Made by a program: the position numbers and the translations under genes. Below are positions 1 to 41,683 of a stretch of 41,972 nt of DNA, one piece after another. The notes under the pieces were generated by a model that ran no database searches, was not told the DNA's origin, and worked only from the letters and a program-made list of their open reading frames with translations. This DNA is from Bdellovibrionales bacterium. Lineage in GTDB: Bacteria > Bdellovibrionota > UBA1018 > CAIMNF01. The stretch spans positions 1 to 41,972 of the forward strand of contig JBEIJY010000020.1 in NCBI GenBank assembly GCA_040380025.1, written 5' to 3'. Numbering within the stretch: the stretch's first letter is position 1; each line of letters begins with the position of its first letter.

Positions 1-60
1 CGGCTCATGAATCACCTGGCTCTATACGTCCGGTATCACAACACGGTGCTTCTCGGGTGA
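1..60 (+). CDS. 3' end of a gene truncated by the window edge; putative IS1-like transposase C-terminus
   Basis: Frame 1 reads RLMNHLALYVRYHNTVLLG*. The HL..Y..YHN tail resembles the end of IS1-related DDE transposases, and a PAL-type terminus follows. Only 19 codons are visible. Confidence 0.4.
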   Translation, partial: RLMNHLALYVRYHNTVLLG

Positions 61-97
61 GGTAAGCTCGATCTGAGCCCCTCACCCCCCTTGTTTA

Positions 98-119
98 GGA
101 ACAGCGAAAGGGGGCAGTT
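98..119 (-). mobile_element. Orphan PAL-type terminal repeat (candidate right end of an autonomous element)
   Basis: Reverse complement is AACTGCCCCCTTTCGCTGTTCC; its first 13 nt are identical to the termini at 976, 5506 and 41484. Confidence 0.6.
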
Positions 120-131: not shown

Positions 132-428
132 TCATGCTGCTTTCGGAGGAGCCATTTCCAATCCTGTTGCCGCGATGATTTTCACCAGAAGATCGCAAGA
201 AACGCTGACAGTTGCGCCATTCTTCACTGCTGAGACTTTGCTTCTGGCGACTCCGGAGCGTTTTACGATTTCATTCACAGTCAATTTGGATTTCTCCATC
301 GCCTTCACGGCAAGTGCGCTTAAATGAGCCTTGTATTTCATGAGAGCTGTATCGCTTTTTGAAAGACCGAGAATGTCTCCGATTTCATCTGCATTTTTTG
401 CGACAATATGGTTTTTATTCTTTTTCAT
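132..428 (-). CDS. XRE-family HTH antitoxin (HigA-like)
   Basis: 98 aa with HTH segment LTVNEIVKRSGVARSKVSAVKNG; lies downstream of and overlaps a RelE-like toxin. Confidence 0.85.
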   Translation of the reverse strand: MKKNKNHIVAKNADEIGDILGLSKSDTALMKYKAHLSALAVKAMEKSKLTVNEIVKRSGVARSKVSAVKNGATVSVSCDLLVKIIAATGLEMAPPKAA

Positions 429-771
429 TCTTCAATTCCTCCAAAAATATTTTCAATCTCTTTTTCCCGGTTTCGATTTCACTTTGGGGTGTTGCTCGGG
501 TTTTCTTTTTGAATCCATGAAATACCAGAATTCCGAGTTCAGTCTCAATCATGAAAAAAGCCCTGTAAATTCCATTTTGATCCTTGAGCCGGATTTCAGC
601 CGCTCCTTTTGCCAGTGAAGGCATGGGCCGTACATCAGGCATGCCAATCAGTTCACCCGATTGAAGCCGGGTGAGAACGGATCCCAAATCTTTTTTTGCT
701 TCCAAAGGCCAATCCCGCATTTCTTTCCGGGCCGGATCGTAGATGAAAACAAGATGCCTGAAACCCTTCAT
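415..771 (-). CDS. Type II toxin, RelE/HigB (Gp49/DUF891-like)
   Basis: 118 aa with EIRL...IYRAF...VFHGFKKKTRATP typical of Gp49/HigB toxins; toxin-first order. Confidence 0.85.
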   Translation of the reverse strand: MKGFRHLVFIYDPARKEMRDWPLEAKKDLGSVLTRLQSGELIGMPDVRPMPSLAKGAAEIRLKDQNGIYRAFFMIETELGILVFHGFKKKTRATPQSEIETGKKRLKIFLEELKNEKE

Positions 772-975: not shown

Positions 976-1172
976 AACTGCCCCCTTTGAGTGTGCTTTT
1001 GCGCCAAGCGGTTGCGCGCCAAGGGGAGGGAATGACCTAATTATTGCCGACTCTCGCGTGCCAGGATGGCGAAAGCGAGGCGGGAGGACCCGGCTCGGAG
1101 GCAATAATTAAGTCATTCCCTCCCCTTGGCGCGCAACCGCTTGGCGCAAAAGCACACTCAAAGGGGACAGTT
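976..1172 (+). repeat. PAL-1: ~200-bp palindromic element
   Basis: 73-bp arms 976-1048 and 1100-1172 (2 mismatches) around the 51-nt core GACTCTCGCGTGCCAGGATGGCGAAAGCGAGGCGGGAGGACCCGGCTCGGA. Confidence 0.95.
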
Positions 1173-4840: not shown

Positions 4841-5533
4841 TTGAGCCTTGATGCGCGAATCCGACACGCCTTTGGCACCCAATCTGAGCCCAAGGGACAT
4901 CTTCATCCCGAAGAGTGGGAGCGCCTTCGCCCGCGCTGGAAGCAAGTGCACGGCATCGCGGTCGCACGCGTGACCGCTCCCGAAGAGGAATGCGGAGAGG
5001 TCGACGCGCTCTGGACGAGCGAGCGGTCACTGCCGATTGCCGTCGTGACCGCCGATTGTGTTCCCATTTTACTTGAGCGGCATGACCGGTCTGCCGTGGC
5101 GGCGATCCATGCCGGGTGGCGGGGGACCCATGCGGGCATCATCGAAGCGTTTTTTCAGGCTCTTCCGAAGGAGTTCGCCGACCCCGCGCTCTGGAGCGCA
5201 CGAATCGGTCCTTGCATTCAGGCCTGCTGTTATGAGGTGAGCGAGGATCTGATGGATTCGTTTGTTGGCCGGTTTTCTGGCCGGTTTTTTGGGCTGGATC
5301 GTCGGCAAATCGAGCCCGCGTGGCGCAAGCTCGATCTGGTTGCCGTGAATCATGCCGTGCTTTCGGGCCTCGGGGTGAATGTGCGCGAGATCCACCCCGA
5401 TTGCACTCATTGTACGAAACAGGGGGAGGGCTTCCGGTACTTCAGCTATCGGCGCGGGGACCGGAACTCGCGGCAGTTTTCTGTGATCTCGATCGAACAA
5501 TTGCCAACTGCCCCCTTTGATTGTGCTTTGTGA
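4841..5533 (+). CDS. pgeF: Peptidoglycan editing factor PgeF/YfiH (laccase-domain protein)
   Basis: QVHG, TADCVPILL, HAGWRG, GPCI..CCYEV, FSYRR motifs. TTG start uncertain; the last codons lie in PAL-2. Confidence 0.9.
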   Translation: MSLDARIRHAFGTQSEPKGHLHPEEWERLRPRWKQVHGIAVARVTAPEEECGEVDALWTSERSLPIAVVTADCVPILLERHDRSAVAAIHAGWRGTHAGIIEAFFQALPKEFADPALWSARIGPCIQACCYEVSEDLMDSFVGRFSGRFFGLDRRQIEPAWRKLDLVAVNHAVLSGLGVNVREIHPDCTHCTKQGEGFRYFSYRRGDRNSRQFSVISIEQLPTAPFDCAL

Positions 5534-5709
5534 ATGAGGGAGCGCCGGGAAAGGTCTACGGGATCATTCGGTTTTTGCCGACTCTCGCGAGCGCGTGACG
5601 CGCGAAAGCGAGGCCGCACGACGCGGCTCGGAGGCAAAAACCGAATGATCCCGTAGACTTTTCCCGTGCTCCCTCGTTTTGTAAGAACAATCAAAGGGGG
5701 CAGTTGGCA
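5502..5709 (+). repeat. PAL-2: ~200-bp palindromic element
   Basis: Arms 5502-5579 and 5633-5709 around the 53-nt core GACTCTCGCGAGCGCGTGACGCGCGAAAGCGAGGCCGCACGACGCGGCTCGGA. Confidence 0.95.
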
Positions 5710-5744: not shown

Positions 5745-7535
5745 ATGGACCAATACAAAAACCGCGAAGACATCCCCGAGTCGTATTGCTGGAACCTGAA
5801 TCTGATCTACCCATCCCAAAAAGACTGGGAAGCGGATTTCTTGAAAATCGAGCCCGCACTTCGCGCGGTCGAGAGCCACAAGGGGCTTCTCGCCCGAAGC
5901 GCCGAGAGTCTTTTTCAGGCGTTCGAGGATCAGGTGAAGCTCGATCTTCTGATCGAGAAGCTCTACTCGTATGCGCATCACCTTTCGGATCAGGACACTC
6001 GAGATTCTGAGAACCTCGGGCGCGTGGACCGGATCCGCTCGAAGGCCGCCGAAGCGGGCGCCCGTCTGGCGTGGATGGATCCCGAACTTCTTGAGACCCC
6101 GATCGAGCGTTTGCAGGAGTTCAGCCGGAATCCCCTGCTCAAGAACTACTCGCGGAAGCTCGAGCTCCTGATCCGCTCGAAACCCCATCAGCGGAGCGCC
6201 GAGGTCGAAGAGGTGCTCTCGCTTGCGGCCGAGCCTCTGGGCGGATCGTACAAGGCGTTCAGCCTTCTCGAAAACGCCGACATGAAGGTCCCGAACGCAA
6301 AAGATGCGGCCGGAAAAGAACATGAGCTCAATCACGCCACCTACAGCGCCTGCCTCGAGTCGGATGACCGGGTGCTTCGAAAGAACGCGTTTGAGACCTA
6401 TCTCGGCGCGTATTCGCAGTATCAGAACACCTTTGCCGCCACCCTCGATTCGCACGTGAAGAAGCAGATTTTCTACGCGAAGACGCGGCGGTTTCCGAGT
6501 GCGATCGAGGCGAGTCTGTTCTCGGATGCGATTCCGGCGCAGGTTTATCACGGGCTCATCGATACCGTGCACCGGTTCTTGCCGCTTCTTCATCGCTGGG
6601 TGGCGCTCAAAAAACGCGTGCTCGGACTCCCCGAGATGAATCTGTATGATTTGTTTCTTCCAATGGTGAAGCCCGCGAAGGTCGAGATTCCCTACGACGA
6701 GGGATTCAACCTCGTGGTCGATGCGGTGAAGCCCTTGGGCGCGGAATACCAGAAGATTCTTGCCTCTTCGCGCGAAGAGCGATGGATCGACGTGTATTAC
6801 ACCGCGGGCAAGCGGGGAGGCGCGTATTCGGGCGGAATGTATCTCACGAAGCCCTACATTCTTCTGAATCACAAGAACAACCTGAACAGCACTTTCACCC
6901 TCGCGCATGAGCTCGGGCATTCCGTGCATACCCATTACTCGAATCGTCACCAGCATTATGCGACGGCGAATTACCCGATTTTCTTGGCCGAAGTGGCCTC
7001 GACCACGAACGAGATGCTCCTGCATTTTCATTTGTACGAGAAGGCGACCGATCGCGAGATGAAGCTGTATCTTCTTGATCATCTCTTCACGCAGTTCCGC
7101 GGGACGCTGTACCGTCAGGTGCAGTTCGCGGAATTCGAGCGCGACATCCATGCCATGGCCGAGCGCGGGGAGCCCCTGACGGCCCAGACGCTCTCGGAGG
7201 TGTACGCCGCGCTGAACGCGAAATACTACGGTCCCGACATGGTCCAGCACGAGAAGATCCGCTACGAGTGGACGAGGATTCCGCATTTTTACTATAACTT
7301 TTATGTGTACAAGTACTCGACGAGCTTTGCGGCCGCGCAGTACTTTGCGCGGAAGATCTTCGAGGGCGATACCGCCGTGCGCGACCGGTATTTGCGGTTT
7401 TTGGCCTCGGGCTCGTCAAAAGACCCGCTCGATACGCTGATCGAGGCCGGCGTCGACTTGCGCAACTCAAAACCGATCGAGGCGGCGTTTCAGGTGTTTG
7501 AGGACGCCCTCGGCGAGTTCGAGCGGATTCTCTGA
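5745..7535 (+). CDS. pepF: Oligoendopeptidase F (M3B)
   Basis: HELGH zinc motif, GKRGGAYS, AEVAST, RIPHFY; start taken at MDQYKN after AAAGGA. Confidence 0.95.
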   Translation: MDQYKNREDIPESYCWNLNLIYPSQKDWEADFLKIEPALRAVESHKGLLARSAESLFQAFEDQVKLDLLIEKLYSYAHHLSDQDTRDSENLGRVDRIRSKAAEAGARLAWMDPELLETPIERLQEFSRNPLLKNYSRKLELLIRSKPHQRSAEVEEVLSLAAEPLGGSYKAFSLLENADMKVPNAKDAAGKEHELNHATYSACLESDDRVLRKNAFETYLGAYSQYQNTFAATLDSHVKKQIFYAKTRRFPSAIEASLFSDAIPAQVYHGLIDTVHRFLPLLHRWVALKKRVLGLPEMNLYDLFLPMVKPAKVEIPYDEGFNLVVDAVKPLGAEYQKILASSREERWIDVYYTAGKRGGAYSGGMYLTKPYILLNHKNNLNSTFTLAHELGHSVHTHYSNRHQHYATANYPIFLAEVASTTNEMLLHFHLYEKATDREMKLYLLDHLFTQFRGTLYRQVQFAEFERDIHAMAERGEPLTAQTLSEVYAALNAKYYGPDMVQHEKIRYEWTRIPHFYYNFYVYKYSTSFAAAQYFARKIFEGDTAVRDRYLRFLASGSSKDPLDTLIEAGVDLRNSKPIEAAFQVFEDALGEFERIL

Positions 7536-21465: not shown

Positions 21466-22610
21466 GGACTCCTCCCGCGAGCGCTCTTTTTGCGATTTTG
21501 ATCGCCTCGACCGCGGGTGCCGGCATCAATCCGGTTCCGGCCGAGGTCAGCCAGAAGCTCGGAGAAATCCGCGCCCAACGGATTTCGGCCGAGAAAGCGC
21601 TGGTCGAAGCCGAGCAGGCCAAGAAGTCGACCGAAGACCAGCTCCGTCGCCTAAAGGCGCTTCAAAAACTCCAGACCCGCGAAAAGGCACTGACCGAGAA
21701 GCGACTGAAGAAGCTCGAGGGGTATCTTGCCGAGCTCGAGGATCGAAAAAAAGCCGTCGAAAAGCGCGTCGAGGAATCAAAGCTCGCCGTCCGGAAGGCG
21801 CTCGCGAAACTGATTCCCCCCGTGGTCGCCCGGAGTGAAGAGCTGATTCGCGGCGGTGAGGGCTCGGGCGCGCTGGTTCTCCGGGGAAAAATCGTTTCGA
21901 GCGTCGCGGCGCAGGACCTGAAGGAGCTCGAGAGTCTTCGGGTCGATCTCGAGGACGCGGCGGAGATCGCAAGCCGGATCGAGCAGGAAAAGCAACAAAT
22001 CGCCTCGCTCTTGCAGGATGTGTCCGAACAGGAGTCGCTCATCTTGTTTCATCGCAAGATCCGCGAGGATTTGAGCGCCGAGCGGCAGGATGAGCTCCTT
22101 CGCGAACTCGACCGCTACCGGAGCCTCAAGACCTCCGAGGTCGAGATCGAACGGAGGATCTCGGATTTCGAGGGCCGGCAAAAGATCGAAGCCGAAAAAG
22201 ACCAGCTCCGGAAAGGCTCCCGCATGGTGCTTCGTCCGAAGAGCCTTCCCTGGCCCCTTCGCGGCAAGGTGGTGGGAACCTATGGCCAACGCCGCGACCC
22301 GAAAACCGGCTTGAACATCTTCAGCAAGGGAATCGAGATCGCAACGGTGCAGGACAACGCCGGCGTGCAGAGCGTGATGGAGGGCCGGGTGCAGTATTCG
22401 GGCGAGATTCCCGGCAAGGGCAAGGTGTTGATCCTCGAGCATTCCGATTCGATCTACAGCATTTACGGGGGGCTCCGGGAGCTGGTGCGGGGCAAGGGGG
22501 ACGAGGTCAGGGCGGCCGAGAACCTCGGGTTTCTGGAGTCGGAGCAACCGCTCTATTTCGAGATCCGCTCCGGAAACATCGCCATCGACCCGGTCAAATG
22601 GTTACAATGA
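21462..22610 (+). CDS. envC: Murein hydrolase activator EnvC-like (coiled coil plus degenerate M23)
   Basis: Start at MRTPP after GGAGG; coiled coil, LPWPLRGKV, LYFEIR...IDPVKWL; M23 His ligands absent. Confidence 0.85.
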   Translation: MRTPPASALFAILIASTAGAGINPVPAEVSQKLGEIRAQRISAEKALVEAEQAKKSTEDQLRRLKALQKLQTREKALTEKRLKKLEGYLAELEDRKKAVEKRVEESKLAVRKALAKLIPPVVARSEELIRGGEGSGALVLRGKIVSSVAAQDLKELESLRVDLEDAAEIASRIEQEKQQIASLLQDVSEQESLILFHRKIREDLSAERQDELLRELDRYRSLKTSEVEIERRISDFEGRQKIEAEKDQLRKGSRMVLRPKSLPWPLRGKVVGTYGQRRDPKTGLNIFSKGIEIATVQDNAGVQSVMEGRVQYSGEIPGKGKVLILEHSDSIYSIYGGLRELVRGKGDEVRAAENLGFLESEQPLYFEIRSGNIAIDPVKWLQ

Positions 22611-22627
22611 TCCGTGAGGGAGTGTTC

Positions 22628-23980
22628 ATGAGAATTCCATTTCTGGCCCTGGTTCTTCTTGGTTCGTCCGTGTGTCGAGCGGGGGAGTCCCCCGGCCCGG
22701 TCTTGAACCAGAACGATCGCTACAAGAACATCGAGTTGTTCCAGAAGGTGCTCCAGTTCGTCGAGAAGAATTACGTCGATTCCGTCCGGAACGATGCGCT
22801 CGTCCACGGCGCCATCAAGGGCATGCTCGAGACGCTCGATCCCCATTCGAACTTTCTGACCGCCGAAGTGTACCGCGACATGAAGATCGACACGAGCGGC
22901 AAGTTCAACGGGGTCGGAATCGAGGTCGCGATCAAGGACGAGGTCCTGACCGTGCTCGCCCCGATCGAGGACAGTCCGGCGTGGAGCGCAGGAATCCTTC
23001 CGGGCGACAAGATCGTGAAAATCGACGGCGAAAGCACGAAGGGGTACTCGCTCGCCGAGGCGATCGCGAAGATGCGCGGAAAAAACGGCTCTTCCGTGAC
23101 CGTCACCATTTATCGCAAAGGCTGGAGCCGGTTCAAGGATCTCGTCCTGAAGCGCCGGGAGATCCGCATCCGTTCAGTGCAGTCGGAGCTCATGGAGCCC
23201 GGGTTCGGGTACGTGCGCCTCTCGTCGTTCAACGAGAGCGCGGCCAAGGACGTGCGGGCCGCGATCGCAAAGCTCGAGCAGAAAGAAAAACTCCGCGGCC
23301 TGGTGTTCGATTTGCGCATGAATCCGGGCGGGCTCCTCGACCAGGCGGTCGAGGTTGCCTCGCTGTTCCTCGATGAGGGTGTGATTGTGACCACGATGGG
23401 CCGCGATCCGGCACAAAAAGAAGTGCGGACCGCAAAAAAAGGAATGGCCCGCAAGGACATTCCGCTCATCGTGCTCGTGAACAGCGGCACCGCCTCGGCG
23501 GCCGAGATCGTGTCGGCGGCCCTGCAAGACCACCGCCGCGCGATGATCGTCGGCGACACCACTTTCGGAAAGGGCTCGGTGCAAACCATCATCGATCTCG
23601 GTGCCGAAATGGGGCTCAAGCTCACGATCGCGCGGTATTTCTCGCCGAACGGGACCAGCATCCAAGAAAAGGGCGTCGTACCCGACATCGCGCTCGACGA
23701 GTATGATCCGAAGCTTCTGGCCCGCGCGCGGATCAACAAGGATTCGACCCGCGAGAAGGACCTGCGCGGACATCTTGTGAATCCGGCCGCCGCCGCGACG
23801 AAGAACGGGGACGAGTTCACCATCCGGGAGTTCAAGGAAAGAACCGGAGACCATGCCGAGGACTCGGGCGACGGCGAGCTTCAGCCGGTTCGATTCCAGC
23901 CCCGCGACGATTACCAGACCCAAGCCGCCCTCCGGTACCTGAAGTCCTACGAGGTGTTCAGGAAGATCAAAAATGAGTGA
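22628..23980 (+). CDS. ctpA: S41 carboxyl-terminal processing protease
   Basis: LDPHS, PDZ region, DLRMNPGGLL, TASAAEI, TFGKGSVQ. Confidence 0.93.
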   Translation: MRIPFLALVLLGSSVCRAGESPGPVLNQNDRYKNIELFQKVLQFVEKNYVDSVRNDALVHGAIKGMLETLDPHSNFLTAEVYRDMKIDTSGKFNGVGIEVAIKDEVLTVLAPIEDSPAWSAGILPGDKIVKIDGESTKGYSLAEAIAKMRGKNGSSVTVTIYRKGWSRFKDLVLKRREIRIRSVQSELMEPGFGYVRLSSFNESAAKDVRAAIAKLEQKEKLRGLVFDLRMNPGGLLDQAVEVASLFLDEGVIVTTMGRDPAQKEVRTAKKGMARKDIPLIVLVNSGTASAAEIVSAALQDHRRAMIVGDTTFGKGSVQTIIDLGAEMGLKLTIARYFSPNGTSIQEKGVVPDIALDEYDPKLLARARINKDSTREKDLRGHLVNPAAAATKNGDEFTIREFKERTGDHAEDSGDGELQPVRFQPRDDYQTQAALRYLKSYEVFRKIKNE

Positions 23981-25196
23981 TTCGGATCTGCCTCTGTTTC
24001 AGCCCGGCGCCGCTTCCGCCCGCCATCCTGCGATGAGCGTGAGCGAACTCACCCATAAAATCAAAGGGACTCTCGAGTCGGGGTTTCCCGGGGTCTGGGT
24101 GCGCGGAGAAATCAGCAATTTCAAGCCCGCCCCGAGCGGGCATCTGTATTTTTCGCTGAAGGACGAGTACGCCACGATTCCCGTCGCGGCCTTCGGCTGG
24201 GGGAGAAAAAAAATCCCCTTCCAGCTCCGGGACGGCATGGAGATCCTCTGCCGCGGGAACCTCTCGGTGTATCCGCAAAGGGGCGCCTACCAGCTCATCG
24301 TCGACGCGATCGAGCCCGTGGGCGCGGGTTCGCTCCAGCTCGCGTTCGAGCAGCTCAAAGAAAAGCTCGCCAAAGAGGGGCTGTTCGACCCGGCCAGAAA
24401 ACGCCCCATTCCCCGCTTTCCGAAAAAAATCGTCGTTATCACCGCGCCTCAGAGCGCCGCGGTCCGCGATGTGCTCACGGTCCTGAGACGTCGCGCACCC
24501 TTTGTCGAGGTGCTCGTGATCCCTTCGCTCGTGCAGGGCGATGAGGCCGCCGCGAAGCTCGTTCAGGCGCTCAGAGTGGCGAATCATCATCGGTTGGGCG
24601 AGGTGATTCTTCTGACCCGGGGCGGGGGAAGCATCGAAGACCTCTGGGCCTTCAATCACGAGGCGCTCGCGCGCGCCATTGCCGGAAGTGCGATCCCGGT
24701 GATTTCGGCGGTAGGGCACGAGATCGACTTCACGATCGCCGATTTTGTCGCCGATCTGCGCGCGCCCACTCCATCGGCCGGTGCCGAAATCCTGACCGGG
24801 GCCTGGGTGGAGCTTCGCGAACGGACCCGACAGCTCGATCAGCGCCTTACGTTGTCGCTCCGGCGCGATCTTCAGCTCCGGAAGCGAACTCTCGAGGCCT
24901 TCGCGGCCCGCCTGAAAAGCCCGAAGGATCGTCTGCGCGAGCAGATCCAGCGCATCGACGAGATCGAGGCCGCGCTCGAGAGGTCGATCCGCCTTTTGAT
25001 CGAGCGCAGACGGACGGGGCTCGATCGCTTGGTGACGAAGCTCGATGCGCTCTCGCCGCTCCAGGTGCTCTCGCGCGGCTACGCGCTCGTCCGGCAGAAG
25101 TCGGGAAGAGTCGTCCGGAGTGCAAAAGAGGTGTCGCCGAATGATCCGCTCCTGTTGCGGTTTGGCGACGGCGAGGTGGGAGTGAGGGTCGAATGA
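23973..25196 (+). CDS. xseA: Exodeoxyribonuclease VII large subunit
   Basis: GEISNF, SGHLYFSLKD, RGGGSIEDLWAFN, VGHEIDFTIAD, APTPS. Confidence 0.97.
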   Translation: MSDSDLPLFQPGAASARHPAMSVSELTHKIKGTLESGFPGVWVRGEISNFKPAPSGHLYFSLKDEYATIPVAAFGWGRKKIPFQLRDGMEILCRGNLSVYPQRGAYQLIVDAIEPVGAGSLQLAFEQLKEKLAKEGLFDPARKRPIPRFPKKIVVITAPQSAAVRDVLTVLRRRAPFVEVLVIPSLVQGDEAAAKLVQALRVANHHRLGEVILLTRGGGSIEDLWAFNHEALARAIAGSAIPVISAVGHEIDFTIADFVADLRAPTPSAGAEILTGAWVELRERTRQLDQRLTLSLRRDLQLRKRTLEAFAARLKSPKDRLREQIQRIDEIEAALERSIRLLIERRRTGLDRLVTKLDALSPLQVLSRGYALVRQKSGRVVRSAKEVSPNDPLLLRFGDGEVGVRVE

Positions 25197-26092
25197 AAGG
25201 GGTTTTGGCGCTTTTTGCGATTCTGATCGGTGTCGATGCGCTCGCCGCACGGACGAGCACCGTCGTGGTGGATGAGGCGTCGATTTTTGAATTCCCGCGA
25301 AAAAATTCGCGTCAGATCGGAAGCGCGAAAAAAGACGAAAAGCTCATGGTCGGGAATCAGCCCATCGAGGGGTTCTACAAGCTGAAGATCAAAACCGGAG
25401 AATTCGGCTGGGTTTCGGGAAATGACATTCTGGTCGAAGCCCCGCAGGAAGGTGCCGGGGGAGTGCCCGAAGCAACCGAAACGTCCGAGGCGTCCGCCGA
25501 AGAGAAATTCCATGGCGACCGCTTTCGCATCCAGCTCGGATACGGAATCCAGAATCTGGCCTATGGCGGGCTCTCGACCCATTACGCGGGAACAGGCTCG
25601 CTCAATTTCGGAACCCATTATCGTCTCGAGATCCAGCGAAAGATTTACTACCTTCTGTACTGGGGGCTTCGCGGAGCGCTCACGAGTGCCGACACGGGAA
25701 TTCGCGACAAGCCCGACGGAACCCGGCAACGGATCAAGCAAGCGGCGATTCCGGTCGAGATCGGAGTGATTTTTCATCCGCTCCACTGGCGGAGGTTCCG
25801 GGTGGGGCTTGCGGGCTATGTGGGCGCCTCGTTCGGGACTTATTCTTCGGTGCAGACCATCGGCACCGAGGATCTGACCGTGAAGTACGCCTCGGTTGAT
25901 CCGATCGGGACCGCGTCGGTGCAGGCGACCTACGGGTTCACGAGGGCGTTCGGGGTTTTCGGCGAGCTCGCATACCGGTACCATCGCACGGGCACGCATG
26001 CGGCGACCTCGGCCGCGCTCGGATCGGTTCCCGCATTCCAGATCGATTATTCGGGCTATTACATGAGCGGCGGCCTCGAGATCCGATTCTGA
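25193..26092 (+). CDS. SH3-like domain plus outer-membrane beta-barrel protein
   Basis: Signal peptide, SH3b-like FYKLKIKTGEFGWVS, amphipathic strands ending in the BAM-type GLEIRF. Confidence 0.7.
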   Translation: MKGVLALFAILIGVDALAARTSTVVVDEASIFEFPRKNSRQIGSAKKDEKLMVGNQPIEGFYKLKIKTGEFGWVSGNDILVEAPQEGAGGVPEATETSEASAEEKFHGDRFRIQLGYGIQNLAYGGLSTHYAGTGSLNFGTHYRLEIQRKIYYLLYWGLRGALTSADTGIRDKPDGTRQRIKQAAIPVEIGVIFHPLHWRRFRVGLAGYVGASFGTYSSVQTIGTEDLTVKYASVDPIGTASVQATYGFTRAFGVFGELAYRYHRTGTHAATSAALGSVPAFQIDYSGYYMSGGLEIRF

Positions 26093-26100
26093 TTTTTTCA

Positions 26101-26301
26101 CACCGCTCTGTTTGTGTGCGCATTTCTTGAATCTCCCATCAGGATCGGGCTCAACCAGAAAAGAAGTTTGACCTCCGAGCCGCGTCGTGCGGCCTCGCTT
26201 TCGCGCGTCACGCGCTCGCGAGAGTCGGCCAAATTTCTTTTCTGGTTGAGCCCGCTCCTGATGGGAGATTTCCGAATCGGGCGCACACATACGGTGCGGT
26301 G
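26101..26301 (-). repeat. PAL-3: ~200-bp palindromic element (core on minus strand)
   Basis: Core 26174-26226 is the exact reverse complement of the PAL-2 core. Arms 26101-26173 and 26227-26301 are self-complementary but of different sequence. Confidence 0.93.
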
Positions 26302-26321
26302 ACTAAAGGAGAGTCTGTCTT

Positions 26322-26387
26322 TTTTTCGAATCCACTGGTTTCCAGTCAGACCCCGGGTTGCTCACTCAATCGGGTGGATTCGAAAAA
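26322..26387. repeat. Inverted repeat with 14-bp perfect arms
   Basis: TTTTTCGAATCCAC (26322-26335) and GTGGATTCGAAAAA (26374-26387), between convergent genes. Confidence 0.75.
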
Positions 26388-26395
26388 GAAAAGAA

Positions 26396-27922
26396 TCACG
26401 CTGAATCCGACCCCGCGAGCCGGTTCAGGATGGCGGGAATCAGCGGTTCGTCGGGCCTCAGGATCGGTTGCATCTCGAAGATCATCCGCGCAAGCTCTGT
26501 CCGCGGAACCGCGGGCAGGCCGCGCCGGTCGATCAGCTTTTCGAGATACCGGAGCGTGCGATCGACGAGCTTCCCGTTGCTCGCCCGCACCCAGGTCATG
26601 ACATTTCCCTCGTAGCGATCCAGCCTGCCCATGACGAGCAGGGAATGGGTGTTCAAAAGAATCTTCACCAGAATTTGCTCTCCGATCGGATCGAGAATCA
26701 GATCGGACTGCAGTCGCAGATCGAAGTCATCGGTTTTGACCTCGAGTTCGCCCAGCCGATGGTGTCCGTCCATGCGCAAAATCTTTTGGGTACGCGGATG
26801 CACCCGCTCCTTGCGTCGCTGGGTCGCCTCGCGTCCAAAATCAAACTCCAGAATCGACGAAACCCCGAGCGGTGCGGGAAGCCCCGGCCATTCGAGGCCG
26901 ATCGGATCGCGTCCCAGAATCCGTCGCCAGGAGTCCCGGGGGGTATGGGCGTCGGGGATCGAAAGGTAACAGAGCGAGCAAAGACCCGCGTGGTCGTTTG
27001 ATTTTTCGAACGGAGTCAGGCTGAAGGTGGGTGAGCGCTCGGTGGTGTCGGTCAAGACGGCGATCGGGTAGGTGGAGGTCTGGTACAACACTGTGGCATC
27101 GTGCCGGTAGGCGTCCGATTCCCACTCGATCATGGGCACCAAAAAAGAGGCGAGATCGAGCTTCGGGTATTCATCTAAAAACTGGTCGGCAAGAAAGAAG
27201 TTTTTGCTGATCGCCATCCCGACCGCGAGCATTTGCGCGGTGGCGGCCTGAAGCCGGGTGCTTCCCGAAAGCGCCATGTGCCCGACCGGAAGACAGAGCG
27301 AGTTCACGCGCGGGTTTTCGATGGCATTTCTGCTGCGCTCGATGGTCTGGCAGAGAATCTCGCGCGGGTTGCAATACACGAACCAGGGCTTGCGGCGGGA
27401 GCGCGCGAGCGCGCCTTCGAGCGTGCCGAGCACATACGGGGTCTCGCCGCCCTCGGTGATCGCGATCAGAAGATCCTGCTCCCCGAATCCGAGATCCTGC
27501 AGGTGGCGTTTGCCGTATTCGGGAAAATCCTCGAAGTTCTCGACCGACTTCACGAGCGCGAAATCTCCGCCCGCCATCAGCGCCTGAACGCGATGCTCAT
27601 AGATCGTTCCCGCATGGATGGCGCGGAACACCGATTCCAGGGCGAGTGCCAGGCGCCCGGTGGCGCCACACCCCGAGAGGAACACGCGGTGTCCCGAGTC
27701 GAGGGTTTCGTGGATTTCGGCCGAGAGAATGCGAATCAGCGGCAAAGCCTCTTTCACGCAGTCAAAAACGCGAAGATCGATGGTGCGCAGGATCTCCACC
27801 GCGCTTTCGGGGTCGGTTTTCGCCAAATCAGAAAGCGATTCCGTTGCGGGATGAAATCCCTCCGTAGGAAGATGTCCGAGCGAGAAATACTCCGCAGATC
27901 GAAGAAAGTCTTCAAGTTGCAT
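26396..27922 (-). CDS. SIS-domain protein, MurQ/glucokinase-regulator-like
   Basis: GCGATGRLA, MAGGDFAL..SVENFED, GSTRLQAATAQ, GNVMTWVRASNGKLVDR; start taken at MQLEDF. Confidence 0.8.
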   Translation of the reverse strand: MQLEDFLRSAEYFSLGHLPTEGFHPATESLSDLAKTDPESAVEILRTIDLRVFDCVKEALPLIRILSAEIHETLDSGHRVFLSGCGATGRLALALESVFRAIHAGTIYEHRVQALMAGGDFALVKSVENFEDFPEYGKRHLQDLGFGEQDLLIAITEGGETPYVLGTLEGALARSRRKPWFVYCNPREILCQTIERSRNAIENPRVNSLCLPVGHMALSGSTRLQAATAQMLAVGMAISKNFFLADQFLDEYPKLDLASFLVPMIEWESDAYRHDATVLYQTSTYPIAVLTDTTERSPTFSLTPFEKSNDHAGLCSLCYLSIPDAHTPRDSWRRILGRDPIGLEWPGLPAPLGVSSILEFDFGREATQRRKERVHPRTQKILRMDGHHRLGELEVKTDDFDLRLQSDLILDPIGEQILVKILLNTHSLLVMGRLDRYEGNVMTWVRASNGKLVDRTLRYLEKLIDRRGLPAVPRTELARMIFEMQPILRPDEPLIPAILNRLAGSDSA

Positions 27923-27951
27923 GCAGGGCGGGTCCAGTGTACACCGATTCC

Positions 27952-29265
27952 ATGTCAAAAACCAAGCTCGCCCTGCTTGTTTTCATTCTGGCTTTCGGGG
28001 TGAACGGCCTAGCATTTTTATTCTCGAAGAAGTCCTTCACGATCGATGAGGTCAAAAGCGTCTGGATCTACGAACTGCCGCTGACCCCGTCGCCGCTCGA
28101 CGCGTATGCCGCGCTCGATCTGGGCCCGCACCAGGGCGTCGTGGGAACCCTCTTCGCCCCGAATCACATGGGCTCGGGTGAGCCGCTGTCGCTTCTGCTG
28201 GCCGAGGAGTGGGGGTGGAACGCAAAGGAGCGGTTGCTCCGGGTGCGTCTGAAGCCTGATCTTCGGTATCAGAATGGAGATTCGGTGCGGGCCGGGGATT
28301 TTGTCGGGCTTAGGGAATACCTGAAGCAAAAAGGATTCGGATTCGGAAAGTCCCCTCTTTGGACGGCGTGGTTGAATTCCACGCTCGAAACGGCCTCTGA
28401 TGCCGAGCTTCAATACCGGTTTGATGCCTCCGCGGGTGCAGAATTCGACCTCGAGGCGTTTTTGTCAGAAGTTCTGACCCATCCGCTGGCGGGTGCGATT
28501 CACCCCTCGAACCTCGATGCGATCCGGAATGGCACAAGTTCCGGCAAAACCTGGATCTCCTCCGGGCCCTACAAGATCCGCAAATGGAACCCGAAAGAAA
28601 TCGTGATCGTGAGCCGCGATGATTTTCCGGTGCGGTTGCCCTCGCCGTTCTTCCGCACGCTCAAATACCAAAGCGCTCCCGTGAAGAATCCGGCATGTGA
28701 CTTCTTGCTCGGGCAGGAGGGCGAGGAGGATGTGCTCCGTGAGCACTCCTCGCAGTCGACCACGCTTGAGCTCTCGGTATTCTGGATTTGCCGCTCCTTT
28801 CGTGGCGAGGGCATTTGTGCCGACCCGGTGGCCCGGGCCGGCATCGAAAAGGCGCTCTCGGCGGAACCTGCTCCCGACACCTCGCTTTCAGGCAAACTTG
28901 TTCGCTTCCGGATTCCGGTCGGATCCGAGACGTTCCGGAACGGCATTCGCGATCAGATCCGCGAAAAGCTGACGAAGGCCGGAGCAAAAGTCGAAGAGAC
29001 CTCGTATTTCTTCAAGAACTCGAAGGATACCGATCTGGAGCTCCAGTTCGTGGTGACCCCGGCGGGATCTCCCGACCGGAAGGCCCTCGCGATGGAACTC
29101 GGCGCGATTTCGACCCGACTCGGCCCGGAAGCGCTCGGGCAGCCCTCGCTCATGGGAGAAGTGACGAGTTTTCCGCTTCGAGTGTTCATGAAGAAAATGA
29201 AGGGCGGCATGTTCGGGAAGGTTTTCCTTGAGCCCGACCTTGAGCAAAAGACCCTTCGATTGTAG
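27952..29265 (+). CDS. ABC substrate-binding family 5-like protein (divergent)
   Basis: LLAEEW...RLKPDLRYQNGDSVRAGD and SSGPYKI match SBP_bac_5 motifs; no permease nearby. Confidence 0.65.
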   Translation: MSKTKLALLVFILAFGVNGLAFLFSKKSFTIDEVKSVWIYELPLTPSPLDAYAALDLGPHQGVVGTLFAPNHMGSGEPLSLLLAEEWGWNAKERLLRVRLKPDLRYQNGDSVRAGDFVGLREYLKQKGFGFGKSPLWTAWLNSTLETASDAELQYRFDASAGAEFDLEAFLSEVLTHPLAGAIHPSNLDAIRNGTSSGKTWISSGPYKIRKWNPKEIVIVSRDDFPVRLPSPFFRTLKYQSAPVKNPACDFLLGQEGEEDVLREHSSQSTTLELSVFWICRSFRGEGICADPVARAGIEKALSAEPAPDTSLSGKLVRFRIPVGSETFRNGIRDQIREKLTKAGAKVEETSYFFKNSKDTDLELQFVVTPAGSPDRKALAMELGAISTRLGPEALGQPSLMGEVTSFPLRVFMKKMKGGMFGKVFLEPDLEQKTLRL

Positions 29266-29276
29266 GATCAGGGGCG

Positions 29277-30155
29277 ATGAGACTCCTTCTACTGCTGAGC
29301 CTGATCCTTGTTTGGTGTCCTGCAATTTTCGCGGCCGAAAAAAGCGAGAAGAAAGAAGCAGAGCCGGTCGATCTTGAAATCGTCGGCAGGATTTATCCGA
29401 TCGACGGTGCTCCGGCGAGATGCCGCGGGATTCTGAAGGGGGATGCGTGTGCCGAGGCGCCCTTCGGCACCTTTCATGTGGTTTCCCGCAAAGAAGGGGA
29501 TGCGCACACCTCGGTCACCACCTTCACCGGGCCTGACGGAGTCCAGGTGACGGAAACCTCGACCGAAAAAAACGGACGCGTCCAGAAGGCCGTGGCCGAA
29601 AATCTCGCGCTCCAAAAGCGATTCGAACTCGAGGTCCGCGACGGGAAAGTCCGCTACCGCATGACCGATCTGGTCGACGGATCAGTCAAGACCGCGGTGG
29701 ACGAGGCCGAAGAGAACCTCGTCGTCCCCTCGACCGTGATGTCGTATGTTTCACCGCGCTTCGCGGAGCTCGAGGCGGGGAAGGAAGTTCCTCTTAAAAT
29801 TGCCGTGTTCGAGCGTTTGGATTCCTACGGGTTTGTCATGCGAAAACTCAAGATGGAAACCGCCTCGGACGGGTCTCCGATCATGGTGCTCGAGATGAAG
29901 CCCACGAGTTTTCTTGTGCGCGCGCTCGTGGACCCGATGTATTTTCATGTGAAAACCAAAACCGGAGAGCTCACCGCGTATGAGGGGCGTTCGGCCCTGC
30001 GCCGCAAAGAAGCCGGAAAATTCCGCGAGATCAACGTGCGAACCGCTTACGAATACAAGGTGAACCGATTTTCGGGCGCGAATGTCAGCCAGAATTGTAC
30101 GATCAATGAACCGGTGCCCGGAATGGGCGGGAAGTGCGAGGTAAAGGCCCAATGA
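29277..30155 (+). CDS. Secreted hypothetical protein
   Basis: 292 aa with signal peptide, beta-rich; coupled to tal. Confidence 0.75.
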   Translation: MRLLLLLSLILVWCPAIFAAEKSEKKEAEPVDLEIVGRIYPIDGAPARCRGILKGDACAEAPFGTFHVVSRKEGDAHTSVTTFTGPDGVQVTETSTEKNGRVQKAVAENLALQKRFELEVRDGKVRYRMTDLVDGSVKTAVDEAEENLVVPSTVMSYVSPRFAELEAGKEVPLKIAVFERLDSYGFVMRKLKMETASDGSPIMVLEMKPTSFLVRALVDPMYFHVKTKTGELTAYEGRSALRRKEAGKFREINVRTAYEYKVNRFSGANVSQNCTINEPVPGMGGKCEVKAQ

Positions 30156-30871
30156 AAACGAAACGACACTACAGCATCAAGATTTTCTCGGACGGAGCGG
30201 AAAAAGACCAGTTGCTCAAGATGAACCGGAATCCCTTGGTGAGCGGGATGACGACCAACCCCTCGCTCATGAAAAAAGCCGGGGTCTCGGATTACCGCGC
30301 GTTTTGCAAGGAAGTGCTCTCGGAGATCACCCAAAAGCCCCTTTCGTTCGAAGTGTTTGCCGATGATTTCGCGACCATGGAGCGCCAGGCTCGCGAGATC
30401 GCGACCTGGGGCCGGAATGTGTACGTGAAGATCCCGATCCAGAACAGCAAGGGCGAGTCCGCGATTCCCCTCGTCCGGACGCTGACCCGCGCCGGGATCA
30501 AGCTGAACGTGACGGCGATTTACACCGTCAAGCAAACCATCGAGGCCTGTCAGGCGCTCGAAGGCGGTGCGCCCTCGATCGTCTCGATTTTTGCCGGTCG
30601 CGCGGCCGATCTCGGCCATGATCCGGTCCCGACCCTGACCGCGGCGGCCGAGGTGTGCGCGGCCTACGGCGGCGAGATCGAGAGCCTCTGGGCCTCGACC
30701 CGCGAGGTGTACAACATCCTTCAGGCCGAGCAGTGCGGGATCAAGATCATCACGGTTCCGTTCGACGTGCTCGCGAAACTCGACTCGGGGTTCAAGACCC
30801 TCGAAGAGCTGAGCCTCGACACCGTGCTGACCTTCAAAAAAGACTCCGAGTCGGCCGGATTTCAGCTCTGA
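30152..30871 (+). CDS. tal: Transaldolase (short type)
   Basis: IFSDGA, TTNPSL, VYVKIP, NVTA, SIFAGR, WASTRE. Confidence 0.92.
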   Translation: MKTKRHYSIKIFSDGAEKDQLLKMNRNPLVSGMTTNPSLMKKAGVSDYRAFCKEVLSEITQKPLSFEVFADDFATMERQAREIATWGRNVYVKIPIQNSKGESAIPLVRTLTRAGIKLNVTAIYTVKQTIEACQALEGGAPSIVSIFAGRAADLGHDPVPTLTAAAEVCAAYGGEIESLWASTREVYNILQAEQCGIKIITVPFDVLAKLDSGFKTLEELSLDTVLTFKKDSESAGFQL

Positions 30872-30946
30872 ATCGCCTCAATCCCGAGCATTGAAACTTC
30901 GGCCCGTTCGCTAGGAAAACCCCGAAGCCTGTGCTAGCGTTCGGGC

Positions 30947-32494: not shown

Positions 32495-32511
32495 AGATCA
32501 AGGAATCCACC

Positions 32512-33882
32512 ATGAAAACAGCAATCATCGGAACCGGGTATGTGGGACTCACGACAGGAGTGGCTTTGGCCTATCTTGGCCACGAGGTGACCTGCCTTGA
32601 TGTCGATCCTGCCAAGATCGAGGGGCTCCGGAAGGGCAAATCCCCGATCTATGAACCGCACCTCGATGAGCTGATGGGGCTTGCCGCAAAGAACCTGAAG
32701 TTCACGCTCGATGCCCAAGAGGCGCTTCGCGATGCCGAAGTCGTGTTCATCGCGGTCGGAACGCCTTCGCTTCCGGACGGAAATCCCGATCTCCGATTTT
32801 TGAAATCCGCGGCCGAAGCGATCGGGCACGGAATTTCGGCCCCCTACGTGGTGATCGTGAACAAGTCGACCGTGCCGATCGGAAGCGGAAACTGGGTCGA
32901 GAGCCTGGTGCGCGATGCGTATCGCGAACGGAATCCGGCCTCGAAATCCTCGTTCGTCGTGGCCTCGAACCCCGAATTCCTGCGCGAGGGCTCGGCCCTC
33001 TCGGACATGCTGTACGCCGATCGCGTCGTTGTAGGAGCAGATGATTCGCGCGCCCTCGAGGTGCTTCGCAGGTTGTATCAGCCGCTCCTCGAGCAGACCT
33101 TCGAGGCGCCTTCGTTTTTGCCGAGGCCCGAGGGCTTCCGCGCGGTTCACTTTCTTTCGAGCGATCTGCAGTCGGCCGAGCTGATCAAATACGCCGCAAA
33201 TGCCTTCCTCGCGCTCAAGGTCTCGTTCATCAACGAGATCTCGGAGCTTTCTGAAAAAGTCGGCGCCGACATTCATCATGTCGCTCGCGGAATCGGGCTC
33301 GATTCGCGGATCGGGAACCGCTTCTTGCAACCCGGGATCGGGTGGGGCGGATCGTGCTTCGGGAAGGATACGGCGGCCTTGATTTCGACCGGCCGCGAGT
33401 ACGGCCTTTCGATGCCGATCACGCAGGCCGCGCGCGAGGTGAACTTCCGCCAGCGTGCGCGCGTGGTGGAGATTCTCATGAACGAGCTCAAGATCTTGAA
33501 GGGCCGGAAGATCGGGATATTGGGGCTTTCGTTCAAGCCCTTCACCGATGATCTTCGCGATGCGCCCGCGCTCGAGATCGCAAACCGCCTGATCGAGCGC
33601 GGTGCCAAGGTGGTCGGATATGATCCGATCTCGATGGAGCGGGCGAAACGCGAATGGTCCGGTTCGGGCATGGTGTTCGCGGCCGATGCCGAGTCGGTGT
33701 TCAGCGAATCGGACGCGGTCGTGCTCGTCACCGAGTGGCCGGAGTTCAAGGCGCTTCCATTCGAGTCCTGCATTTCGGCGATGCGCACGAAGCTCGTTCT
33801 GGACGGTCGCGGTCATTTCGATGGAGCCCGGATTCAATCCGCCGGTGCGCGCTTCATCGCACTCGGGAAGTCCTCACGATGA
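32512..33882 (+). CDS. ugd: UDP-glucose 6-dehydrogenase
   Basis: GTGYVG, KSTVP, NPEFLREG, GGSCFGKD, FKPFTDD. Confidence 0.95.
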   Translation: MKTAIIGTGYVGLTTGVALAYLGHEVTCLDVDPAKIEGLRKGKSPIYEPHLDELMGLAAKNLKFTLDAQEALRDAEVVFIAVGTPSLPDGNPDLRFLKSAAEAIGHGISAPYVVIVNKSTVPIGSGNWVESLVRDAYRERNPASKSSFVVASNPEFLREGSALSDMLYADRVVVGADDSRALEVLRRLYQPLLEQTFEAPSFLPRPEGFRAVHFLSSDLQSAELIKYAANAFLALKVSFINEISELSEKVGADIHHVARGIGLDSRIGNRFLQPGIGWGGSCFGKDTAALISTGREYGLSMPITQAAREVNFRQRARVVEILMNELKILKGRKIGILGLSFKPFTDDLRDAPALEIANRLIERGAKVVGYDPISMERAKREWSGSGMVFAADAESVFSESDAVVLVTEWPEFKALPFESCISAMRTKLVLDGRGHFDGARIQSAGARFIALGKSSR

Positions 33883-34823
33883 AAAAAAAGGTTCTGCTGA
33901 CCGGGGCCGCGGGATTTGTCGGAAGCCATCTGGCCGAGCGGCTTTTGGCCGAAGGCTTTGCGGTGACCGGGGTCGATAATCTGTGCACCGGCCGCAAAAA
34001 GAATCTCGAGACCTTCCGGGATCATCCGGATTTTTCGTTCCTCGAGGCCGATGTGATCGAGGATCTGCCCGCTGAGGTCTGCAACACCCGCTGGGACTGG
34101 GTGATGCACTTCGCGTCTCCGGCTTCTCCGCCGAAGTATTTCGCCCTGCCGCTCGAGACCATGCGGGTGAACAGCGAGGCGACCCGGAAGCTATTGGAGA
34201 TTTGCCGCCGCCAGGGCGCACGCTTTTTTTATGCCTCGACCTCGGAGGTGTATGGCGATCCGCTGGTCCATCCCCAGCCGGAGTCGTATTGGGGGAATGT
34301 GAACCCGATCGGCGTGCGTTCGATTTACGACGAGGCCAAGCGCTACGGCGAGGCAATGACGTATTCGTATCAACGCACGCACGGGGTCGATGTGCGGGTG
34401 ATCCGCATCTTCAACACCTATGGCCCGCGGATGGACCCCGAAGACGGACGCGTGGTCACGAATTTGATGTTCCAGGCCCTGCGCGGCGAGCCCATGACGA
34501 TTTACGGCGACGGGCTCCAGACCCGGAGCTTTCAGTATGTTTCGGATCTGGTCGAGGGAGTCGTGCGGCTCATGGCCTCGAACCACACCGGACCGGTGAA
34601 CCTCGGAAACCCGGGCGAGTTCACGATTCTCGCCTTTGCCGATGTGGTGAAGCGCCTCGTTCGGACGAAAAGCGAGCTTCGGTTCGAGCCGCTTCCGTCG
34701 GATGATCCGAAGCAGAGAAAGCCCGAGATCTCGCTCGCCCGAAGCCTCCTGCAGTGGGAACCCCGGGTGGATCTCGAGGCGGGGCTAGCGCTCACGCTCG
34801 GGTTCTTCCGCGATCACGAGTAA
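33879..34823 (+). CDS. uxs: UDP-glucuronate decarboxylase (UDP-xylose synthase)
   Basis: GAAGFVG, ASPASP, STSEVYGDP, YDEAKR, RIFNTYGPRM; start at MKKKV overlapping the ugd stop. Confidence 0.93.
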   Translation: MKKKVLLTGAAGFVGSHLAERLLAEGFAVTGVDNLCTGRKKNLETFRDHPDFSFLEADVIEDLPAEVCNTRWDWVMHFASPASPPKYFALPLETMRVNSEATRKLLEICRRQGARFFYASTSEVYGDPLVHPQPESYWGNVNPIGVRSIYDEAKRYGEAMTYSYQRTHGVDVRVIRIFNTYGPRMDPEDGRVVTNLMFQALRGEPMTIYGDGLQTRSFQYVSDLVEGVVRLMASNHTGPVNLGNPGEFTILAFADVVKRLVRTKSELRFEPLPSDDPKQRKPEISLARSLLQWEPRVDLEAGLALTLGFFRDHE

Positions 34824-35018
34824 GCTGCCCCCTTTGATTGTGCTTTTGCGCCATGCGCGCACGCCCAAGGGGTGGGAATGATTTAGTTTTTGCCTCCGAG
34901 CCGGGTCCTCCGGCCTCGCTTTCGCCATCCTGGCTCGCGAGAGTCGGCAAGAACTAAATCATTCCCACCCCTTGGGCGTGCGCGCATGGCGCAAAAGCAC
35001 AATCAAAGGGGGCAGTTT
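34822..35018 (-). repeat. PAL-4: ~200-bp palindromic element (core on minus strand)
   Basis: Arms 34822-34894 and 34946-35018 (2 mismatches); core 34895-34945 is 49/51 identical to the PAL-1 core. Confidence 0.95.
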
Positions 35019-35022
35019 GATC

Positions 35023-36399: not shown

Positions 36400-36443
36400 G
36401 ATGCGGGGAGTTTCGCAAAAACGGGGCTGATTTGCAAACCCCC

Positions 36444-36643
36444 CAAACTGGCCTCCTTGACTGCGCCTAATTTCAAAGCTCGAACGGCGAACTGCCCGAA
36501 ATAAAAATGGTTTTGCCTCCAAGCCGGGTCGTCCGGCCTCGCTTCCGCCATCCTGGCTCGCGAGAGTCGGCCAAACCATTTTTATTACGGGTACTTCGCT
36601 GTTCAAGCCTCCGTAATTAAGCGCAGTCAAGGAGGCCAGTTTG
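36444..36643 (-). repeat. PAL-5: ~200-bp palindromic element (core on minus strand)
   Basis: Arms 36444-36517 and 36569-36643 with terminus variant CAAACTGGCCTCCTTGACTGCGC on both arms; 51-nt core 36518-36568. Confidence 0.93.
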
Positions 36644-36644
36644 C

Positions 36645-36673: not shown

Positions 36674-36683
36674 CATCCAACCT

Positions 36684-37250: not shown

Positions 37251-37446
37251 AAACTGCCTTACTTGATTGTGCAGAATTAAAAGAAGCACTTCGGCAAGTC
37301 CCTGAAAGTAGAATCATTCTTCTGGATCGGGAGCATGGCGAAAGATCGGCTGGGTCCGAATGTCGGACTTGATGGCAAAATCTTCCGTCCTTTTGCATGG
37401 TTCTCGCGTGCGATTTTTAACTCTGCACAATTGATTCAGGCAGTTT
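37251..37446 (+). repeat. PAL-6: degenerate palindromic element
   Basis: Termini AAACTGCCTTACTTGATTGTGCAGAATTAAAA and TTTTAACTCTGCACAATTGATTCAGGCAGTTT 196 bp apart; core relic ATGGCGAAAG...TCGGA. Confidence 0.8.
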
Positions 37447-38082: not shown

Positions 38083-38284
38083 CAAACTGCCTCATTTGAT
38101 TGTGCATAGTAAGGGAGCGGGACTGGCAGAGGGCGTTGGAATGATTTCGTTTTTCTGTACGGGCCGGGTCGTCCCAGTTTCGCTCAGATCATCGTGGCGC
38201 ACGGAGGTCGGTAAAAACCAAATCATTCCAGTATCTTAATTTTCGCCGCTCGCATAATTATGCACAACCAAATCAGGCAGTTTG
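38083..38284 (-). repeat. PAL-7: partly degenerate palindromic element (core on minus strand)
   Basis: Termini CAAACTGCCTCATTTGATTGTGCATA and TATGCACAACCAAATCAGGCAGTTTG; inner GGAATGATTT/AAATCATTCC; core relic GCCGGGTCGTCC...GTCGG. Confidence 0.88.
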
Positions 38285-41481: not shown

Positions 41482-41683
41482 CAAACTGCCCCCTTTCATT
41501 GTGCTTGATGGGGCAGTGGGATGAGGAGAAGGGATTGGGATGATTCGGTTTTCCCCGACTCTCGCGAGGCAGGATTGCCGACAGCGAGGCCGCAGGACGC
41601 GGTTCGGAGGAGAAAATCGAATTATTCCAATCCCTTATCTTCATCCCTCGGCACAAAAAAGCACAGGCAAAGGGGGCAGTTTG
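41482..41683 (+). repeat. PAL-8: ~200-bp palindromic element
   Basis: Arms 41482-41556 and 41609-41683 around the 52-nt core GACTCTCGCGAGGCAGGATTGCCGACAGCGAGGCCGCAGGACGCGGTTCGGA. Confidence 0.93.

Follow-up and report, generated by a model that had tools for sequence, protein, structure and literature searches.

A conserved branched core caps palindromic elements with IS1-like ends in a Bdellovibrionales genome

The origin and the palindromic upkeep of hairpin-shaped MITEs are poorly explained. Among the closest described systems, Chunjie of Geobacter uraniireducens measures 178-235 bp and carries 21-bp terminal repeats and 9-bp direct repeats (PMC3184786). Here, we analysed a window of 41,972 nucleotides on a contig of a Bdellovibrionales bacterium, in which a palindromic element, PAL, is repeated. 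As far as PMC3184786 describes Chunjie and Nezha, PAL resembles these MITEs in size, IS-shared terminal repeats and 9-bp duplications, as well as in its very stable hairpin, its filled and empty sites and its overlap with gene ends; in size, end length and duplication it is close to Chunjie. It differs from both, as they are presented there, in that each copy has arms of its own that nonetheless match each other as complements over about 70 nt, and in that its centre is a conserved covarying junction, found also outside any MITE. The element bcr1 of the Bacillus cereus group, likened here by its description, is also dispersed, with a long stem and two stem-loops kept by compensatory changes, but it has 5-bp direct repeats and was shown to be transcribed (PMC3184786), whereas PAL has a cognate IS at hand and a core common to non-MITE contexts. 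As in the REPIN/RAYT systems outlined in PMC3337134, PAL is a non-autonomous palindromic repeat, full copies of which flank one transposase gene (on contig C5 of the same genome, G000), but its partner is of the DDE fold and not HUH, duplications are present, and a conserved structure sits at the hairpin tip. No published description of the element or of the core was found in the literature searched, a scope that left ISfinder, subscription journals and supplements outside; the main text of PMC11602168 does not contain 'Bdellovibri', and its supplementary MITE lists may hold these elements.

Table 1. Features of the window, with PAL-2 resolved into its parts
Feature	Position	Strand	Description
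Right end of cognate IS	1..119	+	transposase C-terminus, short hairpin, terminal inverted repeat
PAL-1	976..1172	+	full element, core on +
Laccase-like gene (PF02578)	4841..5533	+	stop codon within PAL-2 left arm
PAL-2 left arm	5506..5579	+	IS-type terminal inverted repeat at start, about 5506-5526
Branched core of PAL-2	5578..5634	+	tandem GA/GA, one C-G pair, three-way junction; comparative support
P2 of PAL-2 core	5584-5588 (CTCGC) / 5608-5612 (GCGAG)	+	
Internal loop of PAL-2 core	5589-5590 / 5604-5607	+	GA opposite GAAA (GA/GNNA loop)
Hairpin A of PAL-2 core	5591-5603	+	
Hairpin B of PAL-2 core	5613-5627	+	
PAL-2 right arm	5633..5705	+	second terminal inverted repeat at its end
Oligoendopeptidase F, pepF (PF01432/PF08439)	5745..7535	+	ORF listed from 5712; start likely 5745
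PAL-3	26085..26315	-	core identical to PAL-2; arms unrelated, ends decayed
PAL-4	34823..35017	-	full element
PAL-5	36446..36641	-	full element
PAL-6	37251..37446	.	ends retained; core too decayed to detect; no complementarity between inner arms
PAL-7	38085..38282	-	degenerate core
PAL-8	41484..41681	+	full element

PAL is a non-coding palindromic element of about 197 bp with the core at its centre, present in about 90 copies in G000. The core gave 93 profile matches, some of them cut by contig ends, and 89 covariance-model matches in this 2.35-Mb genome. Pairing of end motifs yielded 43 elements, 34 of them with a core, and 31 of those 34 are 195-202 bp long. There are 67 long inverted repeats in G000, of which 59 hold the core, five contain related hairpins at tRNA ends and three are coreless PAL ends. 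Complementarity between the two arms of PAL-2 is 97% over the inner 34 nt of the left one, two more variable terminal bases at each end would extend this copy to 5504-5707, and neither a promoter-like nor a terminator-like site was found in its interior. By the gene calls made here, 53 of the 93 cores have a gene to either side (19 lie between convergent and 6 between divergent genes, 15 are sense and 13 antisense), and convergent gaps are over-represented against a background of 82/772. A small Gp49-like (DUF891) gene lies between the IS end and PAL-1 (window 415-771, minus strand); its Pfam family is phage-derived, and the DUF891 family is related to toxin-antitoxin modules.

The ends of PAL match the terminal inverted repeats of a resident IS1-like transposase of the DDE fold, and the same end motif closes the transposase gene at window positions 1-119 and at two other contig ends. 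A full gene for the 307-aa transposase lies between two complete PALs (C5:99903-101243, locus L012), and a 63%-identical gene lies between two coreless modules of about 190 bp (C12:43758-45070, L013). At these loci, the two modules of about 190-200 bp flank the gene in direct orientation, and the right one supplies the stop codon. If such modules recombined with each other, a solo PAL could remain, in the manner of a solo LTR. In relatives, the gene belongs to an ordinary IS of about 1.05 kb with the same end motif; a clear 9-bp duplication flanks two of these IS copies, and most are without one. The consensus of 38 MITE ends from the relatives G002 and G013 fits the IS ends of their own genomes, unlike those of G000. 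On another contig of G000 (C40:14143-14340), an IS left end is inserted immediately after a tRNA-Met gene.

The transposase is present in 16 of the 41 relatives searched, the named records carrying it are mostly Bdellovibrionota MAGs, which would put the host in that phylum, and its family comprises 746 clusters at E ≤ 1e-10. Residues C5, C50, C53, D134 and D213 are invariant. The protein has a zinc ribbon, a helix-turn-helix with only a weak Pfam match, and a DDE/RNase H-type fold. Zinc finger, helix-turn-helix, RNase H-type domain and 8-9-bp duplications are shared with IS1/IS1595, but the PAL transposase is a single 307-aa frame, while IS1 is described with frameshifted insA/insB (PMC12428005, PMC8101967). 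It further differs from IS1 in its scores, 37.5 and 41.7 bits against the cut-off of 100 of the IS1 model, which 34 of 35 family members match below that cut-off, and in its third catalytic position, N259, which is Asn and not Glu in at least 90% of 35 sequences. No match to DDE_Tnp_IS1595 was reported, and a PDB sequence search returned no relative; the structure model (pLDDT 88.6) has the ISCth4 transposase and retroviral integrases as its top fold matches. Judged from sequence and modelled fold, the family is IS1-like only and apparently unclassified.

A 9-bp target duplication (at least 7 of 9 positions matching) was found at 10 of the 43 G000 elements, compared with 11 of 1806 mismatched flank pairings, and the duplications sit two bases outside the conserved end. 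The duplication is absent from the other 33, and PAL-2 is without one (3/9 match). In G002 and G013, both ends were recognisable in 19 of 41 elements, and a duplication was present in one of the 19. The PAL-2 site, the gap between the laccase-like gene and pepF, is empty in all five relatives compared, which stand at species-level distance, so that the exact insertion ends are unreadable. When contigs of four DNA sequencing runs were compared with window 22500-41972, no empty-site joint was found among the joints listed; one run, possibly the one from which this DNA came, matches the flanks and breaks at the elements, and the other three barely cover this region. Together, the IS-matched ends, the duplications and the empty site indicate that PAL is a MITE, and by the criteria set out in PMC3184786 it classes, on its sequence features, as a non-autonomous one. 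The IS1-like transposase would act on PAL in trans. The many PAL and IS copies that have no duplication, and the Asn at the third catalytic position, count against this reading.

The complete 213-nt element folds far more stably than its shuffles (z = -17.5 as RNA, -16.5 as DNA). The isolated core of 57-61 nt has unremarkable stability (z of -0.1 to -2.1), so the support for its fold is comparative. The first-pass annotation had proposed a branched fold for this segment of PAL-2, and P2, the GA/GAAA loop and hairpins A and B stand; its hairpin variants for PAL-1, PAL-2, PAL-3, PAL-4, PAL-5 and PAL-8 are present as listed, with PAL-1 also carrying a G·G mismatch in hairpin B and GT in place of the inner GA. 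The basal pairing of CCGA with TCGG does not stand. Energy minimisation does select this register when the isolated core is folded as DNA, and in some copies when it is folded as RNA, but none of its four pairs has a two-sided change in an alignment of 35 sequences, and its A-T pair is broken in 8 of the 35. One of the two G-T pairs claimed for the core strand rests on this unsupported register. Of 68 distinct cores, 67 retain one GA dinucleotide, 66 the other and 67 GNNA, whose middle varies freely, while 50 retain TCGG. When the arms are included, CC 5578-5579 pairs with GG 5633-5634 in the RNA fold, GA faces GA, and C5582 pairs with G5630. We favour a model in which the arm stem would run on through CC/GG into GA opposite GA, presumably joined by sheared G·A pairs, and one C-G pair.

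Known RNA families were compared with this corrected fold. Its three-way junction with GA and GAAA linkers superficially recalls the hammerhead, whose core consensus includes CUGANGA; this motif is absent from the core, the middle of GNNA is free to vary, and no Rfam family was found at gathering score, the best relaxed matches being a miRNA hairpin and RtT (E = 4). A small self-cleaving ribozyme is thus an extremely improbable identity. Compared with the consensus motifs of the K-turn and the hammerhead, the core fits neither. RtT (RF00391) is likewise a small multi-hairpin junction in a stem, and related modules lie at tRNA 3' ends here; however, the core scores 14 bits against a gathering score of 45, has two hairpins in place of the RtT layout, and occurs mostly away from tRNAs.

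Within G000, the covariation of the core is mainly two subfamily-level swaps (16 and 6 sequences) in the 35-sequence alignment, which was built mostly from copies of this genome, and the earlier statement that most changes are compensatory was overstated to that extent. Across relatives covariation is broad: two-sided changes at the three outer pairs of P2 number 5, 4 and 9 in an alignment of 38 sequences and 11, 9 and 21 in one of 52, counts that come from sequences related to each other and are flattered because both alignments were fitted to the model. The fold covaries across the order in these larger alignments. Template switching yields multi-base compensatory changes as well as loop inversions, as reported in PMC8794818, and since compensatory changes may arise by this route alone, stem covariation is weakened as proof of selection. 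Better evidence is provided by the conserved unpaired purines, which are always on one strand: the GA/GA, GA/GNNA and NNGAN loop motifs keep their strand, and no inverted (NTCNN) loop occurs among the 85 G000 and 52 distant cores counted. Comparative evidence thus supports a core fold conserved as a single-stranded, strand-specific structure, in agreement with the earlier proposal of selection in single-stranded form. The selected form may be either RNA or single-stranded DNA, the G·T bias being weak and a sense bias absent: G·T outnumbers A·C in the core by 23:12 in favour of the core-forward strand (p = 0.09), and in the arms by 73:56 by site (p = 0.16) and 28:12 by copy, with 15 ties.

We considered whether the fold has no function and simply arises from the recent amplification of the element, from gene conversion between its copies and from template switching within the palindrome. 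The thin covariation within G000, the ordinary stability of the isolated core and the origin of compensatory changes by template switching, as put forward in PMC8794818, would agree with this. It is nevertheless improbable, given that the unpaired motifs are the most conserved part of the core, that the architecture persists across families though stems and arms turn over, and that NTCNN loops are absent from both sets of cores.

The identity of the loops suggests a second reading, in which the core would work as an RNA: once transcribed, it would offer its two A(N)GGAN loops to a CsrA dimer and serve as a CsrA sponge or an mRNA-stability module. The prevalence of this loop type makes CsrA the obvious candidate for a protein that binds the core. 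Most loops are AGGAN, and the six-base loops of distant copies are ANGGAT, the high-affinity form for CsrA according to PMC4005645. At least one GGA loop is found in 47 of the 52 distant cores; in G000, both loops carry GGA in 43 of 85 cores and neither does in 15. As in CsrB/RsmZ-type RNAs, to the extent that PMC4005645 covers them, A(N)GGAN is displayed on short stems, but each unit here has two loops, the first G of GGA is often changed and no strand bias is seen, with 15 sense and 13 antisense cores between co-directional genes. A csrA gene is present in G000 and in all five other core-bearing genomes tested, but this co-occurrence says nothing, since csrA is found in 129 of 141 genomes of the phylum. 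The first G is the varying position of the motif, and GGA-to-AGA changes serve, in the account of PMC4005645, to abolish CsrA binding. The 15 GGA-free cores, PAL-2 included, belong to an amplified subfamily. It is this varying G and the amplification of a GGA-free subfamily that make CsrA binding unlikely in our estimate.

Over their inner 40 nt, the two arms of a copy are 90% complementary, and arms of different copies are 60% alike, as measured on the 55 of 93 copies for which both flanks are present and the anchors can be recognised. Similarity to the nearest other copy is 87.5%, which shows that there are sister subfamilies, and in 11 disjoint sister pairs of G000 we counted 32 concerted two-arm changes against about 3.9 expected; nine pairs from G002 and G013 gave 7 against about 1. 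The core can also be turned around. In the copy C42 of G000 it is inverted relative to four sisters, and swapped cores are seen in 5 of 26 pairs with longer arms (four of them involving one copy) and in 0 of 8 with clipped arms. In another genome, G050, a 1,056-bp duplication (L255/L257) aligns one way while its central 296 bp align better the other way. At three further G000 loci (C22:16885, C15:53641 and C4:74272), the two arms of a core are mismatched, through recombination between copies at the core or through mis-assembly. The flips and the mismatched arms could partly be short-read assembly errors, because many contigs end in cores. From these comparisons, the concerted arm changes and core flips fit template switching.

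A long hairpin with a branched tip whose core occurs in flip and flop orientations recalls the Y/T-shaped hairpin that the first-pass annotation likened to parvoviral termini or HUH-enzyme substrates. Under this proposal, the core would be a single-stranded DNA substrate for an HUH nuclease, either REPIN/RAYT-like or rolling-hairpin as at parvovirus termini. Y1 genes exist in the lineage, and a coreless 80-bp PAL follows the Y1 gene of G000. Despite this, the proposal failed the tests applied to it, and we hold it to be very improbable. REPIN/RAYT or HUH insertion proceeds without target duplication, whereas the duplications and IS-type terminal repeats of PAL fit a DDE enzyme, a partner of the DDE/RNase H type. 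Twenty-two loci (20 Y1/HUH loci of relatives, the G000 Y1 locus and the G000 csrA locus) contain no core, leaving none in the 21 Y1 loci, and the only Y1 match in G002, a genome of 42-44 copies, falls below the cut-off. The single G000 Y1 protein is eroded: judged by the HUH/Y1 motifs, it reads R-I-H at the HUH position and apparently is without the first His and the Tyr. This RAYT-like gene, its catalytic residues apparently lost, lies at C13:34584-35186 (L009:1336-1938), directly before the coreless PAL. The one parvovirus-like trait, a core flipped between its arms, is explained by recombination or template switching without a nickase.

The core is found far outside PAL. Model R2 detected it in 26 of 86 genomes of the order (best 56 candidates per genome scored) and in 9 of 141 genomes across the phylum (best 34 candidates per genome scored). 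Among the loci listed, it tops a near-perfect inner stem of 25-45 bp whose sequence is unrelated from locus to locus. The arm at three loci (L152, L073 and L074) consists of the 3' end of a tRNA-Ser together with the DNA that follows it. G050 has 33 core copies; 10 of the 13 loci examined are palindromes of 275-340 bp, and IS ends are absent from the vicinity of the palindrome at all 13. Two further genomes, G003 and G005, have 10 and 8 cores and no transposase match, which together with the G050 copies means that the IS cannot explain all of the spread. A metagenome scan gave one full-architecture match, L166, where a long perfect stem carries the core and a ParA-like ORF begins just downstream. 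In viral contigs, two core patterns had no matches, and none of the 4 matches to a half pattern folds into the core-on-long-stem form. Housekeeping or unassigned genes are the neighbours of the core in the 52 ORFs scanned. By its sequence distribution, the core appears as a separate module, more widely distributed than the MITE.

Several variants of this module were recorded. In many G050 palindromes (L172, L188-L204, L255-L266), a second module, an asymmetric internal loop, is conserved halfway along the arms; GGA is unpaired on each of its strands, and the stems that flank it vary in sequence but stay complementary. These palindromes yielded neither a terminal motif nor a mobiliser. An extra branched insert of about 55-60 nt occupies the hairpin A loop at L016:212-348, L017:257-389, L144 and L165, in three genomes, and itself bears similar loops. 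Multi-hairpin modules with the same loop type stand behind G000 genes for tRNA-Gln (C1), tRNA-Ser (C1), tRNA-Leu (C5), tRNA-Glu (C9), tRNA-Arg (C26) and tRNA-Pro (C29), and some of these tRNA-adjacent modules are wrapped in copies of the tRNA tail.

The relation between cores and unrelated arms also admits an active role, in which a trans factor would recognise the core, copy 70-120 nt of neighbouring DNA in inverted form and keep the arm matched. On an IS end this would produce a MITE, and on a tRNA tail (antisense copies) or plain intergenic DNA, other forms. The unrelated near-perfect stems below the cores examined are what such copying would leave, and arms derived from a tRNA tail or an IS end are alike in length, about 70-80 nt. 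The arms around identical cores have a median similarity of only 57.5% (39 pairs), core and arm similarity hardly correlate (rho 0.12), and arm complementarity peaks next to the core. However, generic template switching with core-to-core gene conversion predicts the same patterns, and no enzyme could be linked to the cores: nothing was found in the 52 neighbouring ORFs, there was no RVT_1 match, and no core lies near Y1 genes. We give this palindrome-making role the same low likelihood as the CsrA role. A retron or retro-element was rejected on the lack of a PF00078 (reverse transcriptase) match in G000, which is 98% complete.

Probably, the MITE owes its spread to the IS, selection maintains the core as a single-strand cap to which a host factor binds, and template switching matches the arms. 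The IS1-like transposase (D134/D213/N259) would bind both terminal repeats and insert the unit of about 197 bp into intergenic DNA with a 9-bp duplication, a movement that would not need the core. When the element becomes single-stranded, at a replication fork or as a transcript, its arms would pair and the core would fold. Template switching or conversion across the core, the presumed copying mechanism, would then copy one inner arm onto the other and sometimes invert the core. Selection would keep the unpaired purines of the core, most likely as a putative host protein binds them, and this may let the long palindrome persist.

This analysis newly describes the corrected junction, IS ends that match genome by genome, cores that have no IS ends, and the concerted changes and flips. 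One conserved 57-nt module is joined to IS ends, to tRNA tails and to arms that have no IS ends, and transposase, MITE and core make a compact testable system. A core that binds a host protein or drives inverted duplication would represent a new class of cis-element; otherwise an apparently unclassified IS1-like family and its MITE would still have been described, along with a warning that covariation in palindromic repeats need not signify a functional RNA. Should the palindrome-making role hold, the core would produce both MITEs, from single IS ends, and antisense copies of tRNA tails across an order of predatory bacteria.

Two minor observations concern the G000 elements themselves. A small GIY-YIG nuclease gene (C12:31562-31777, L010) lies directly downstream of a PAL in the same orientation, one juxtaposition among about 90. 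The 5' arm on either strand is G-rich, with a G skew of 0.46 (0.23 in G002 and G013), and a T-tract ends the 5' arm before the core, which is the reverse of a terminator layout and may permit read-through both ways.
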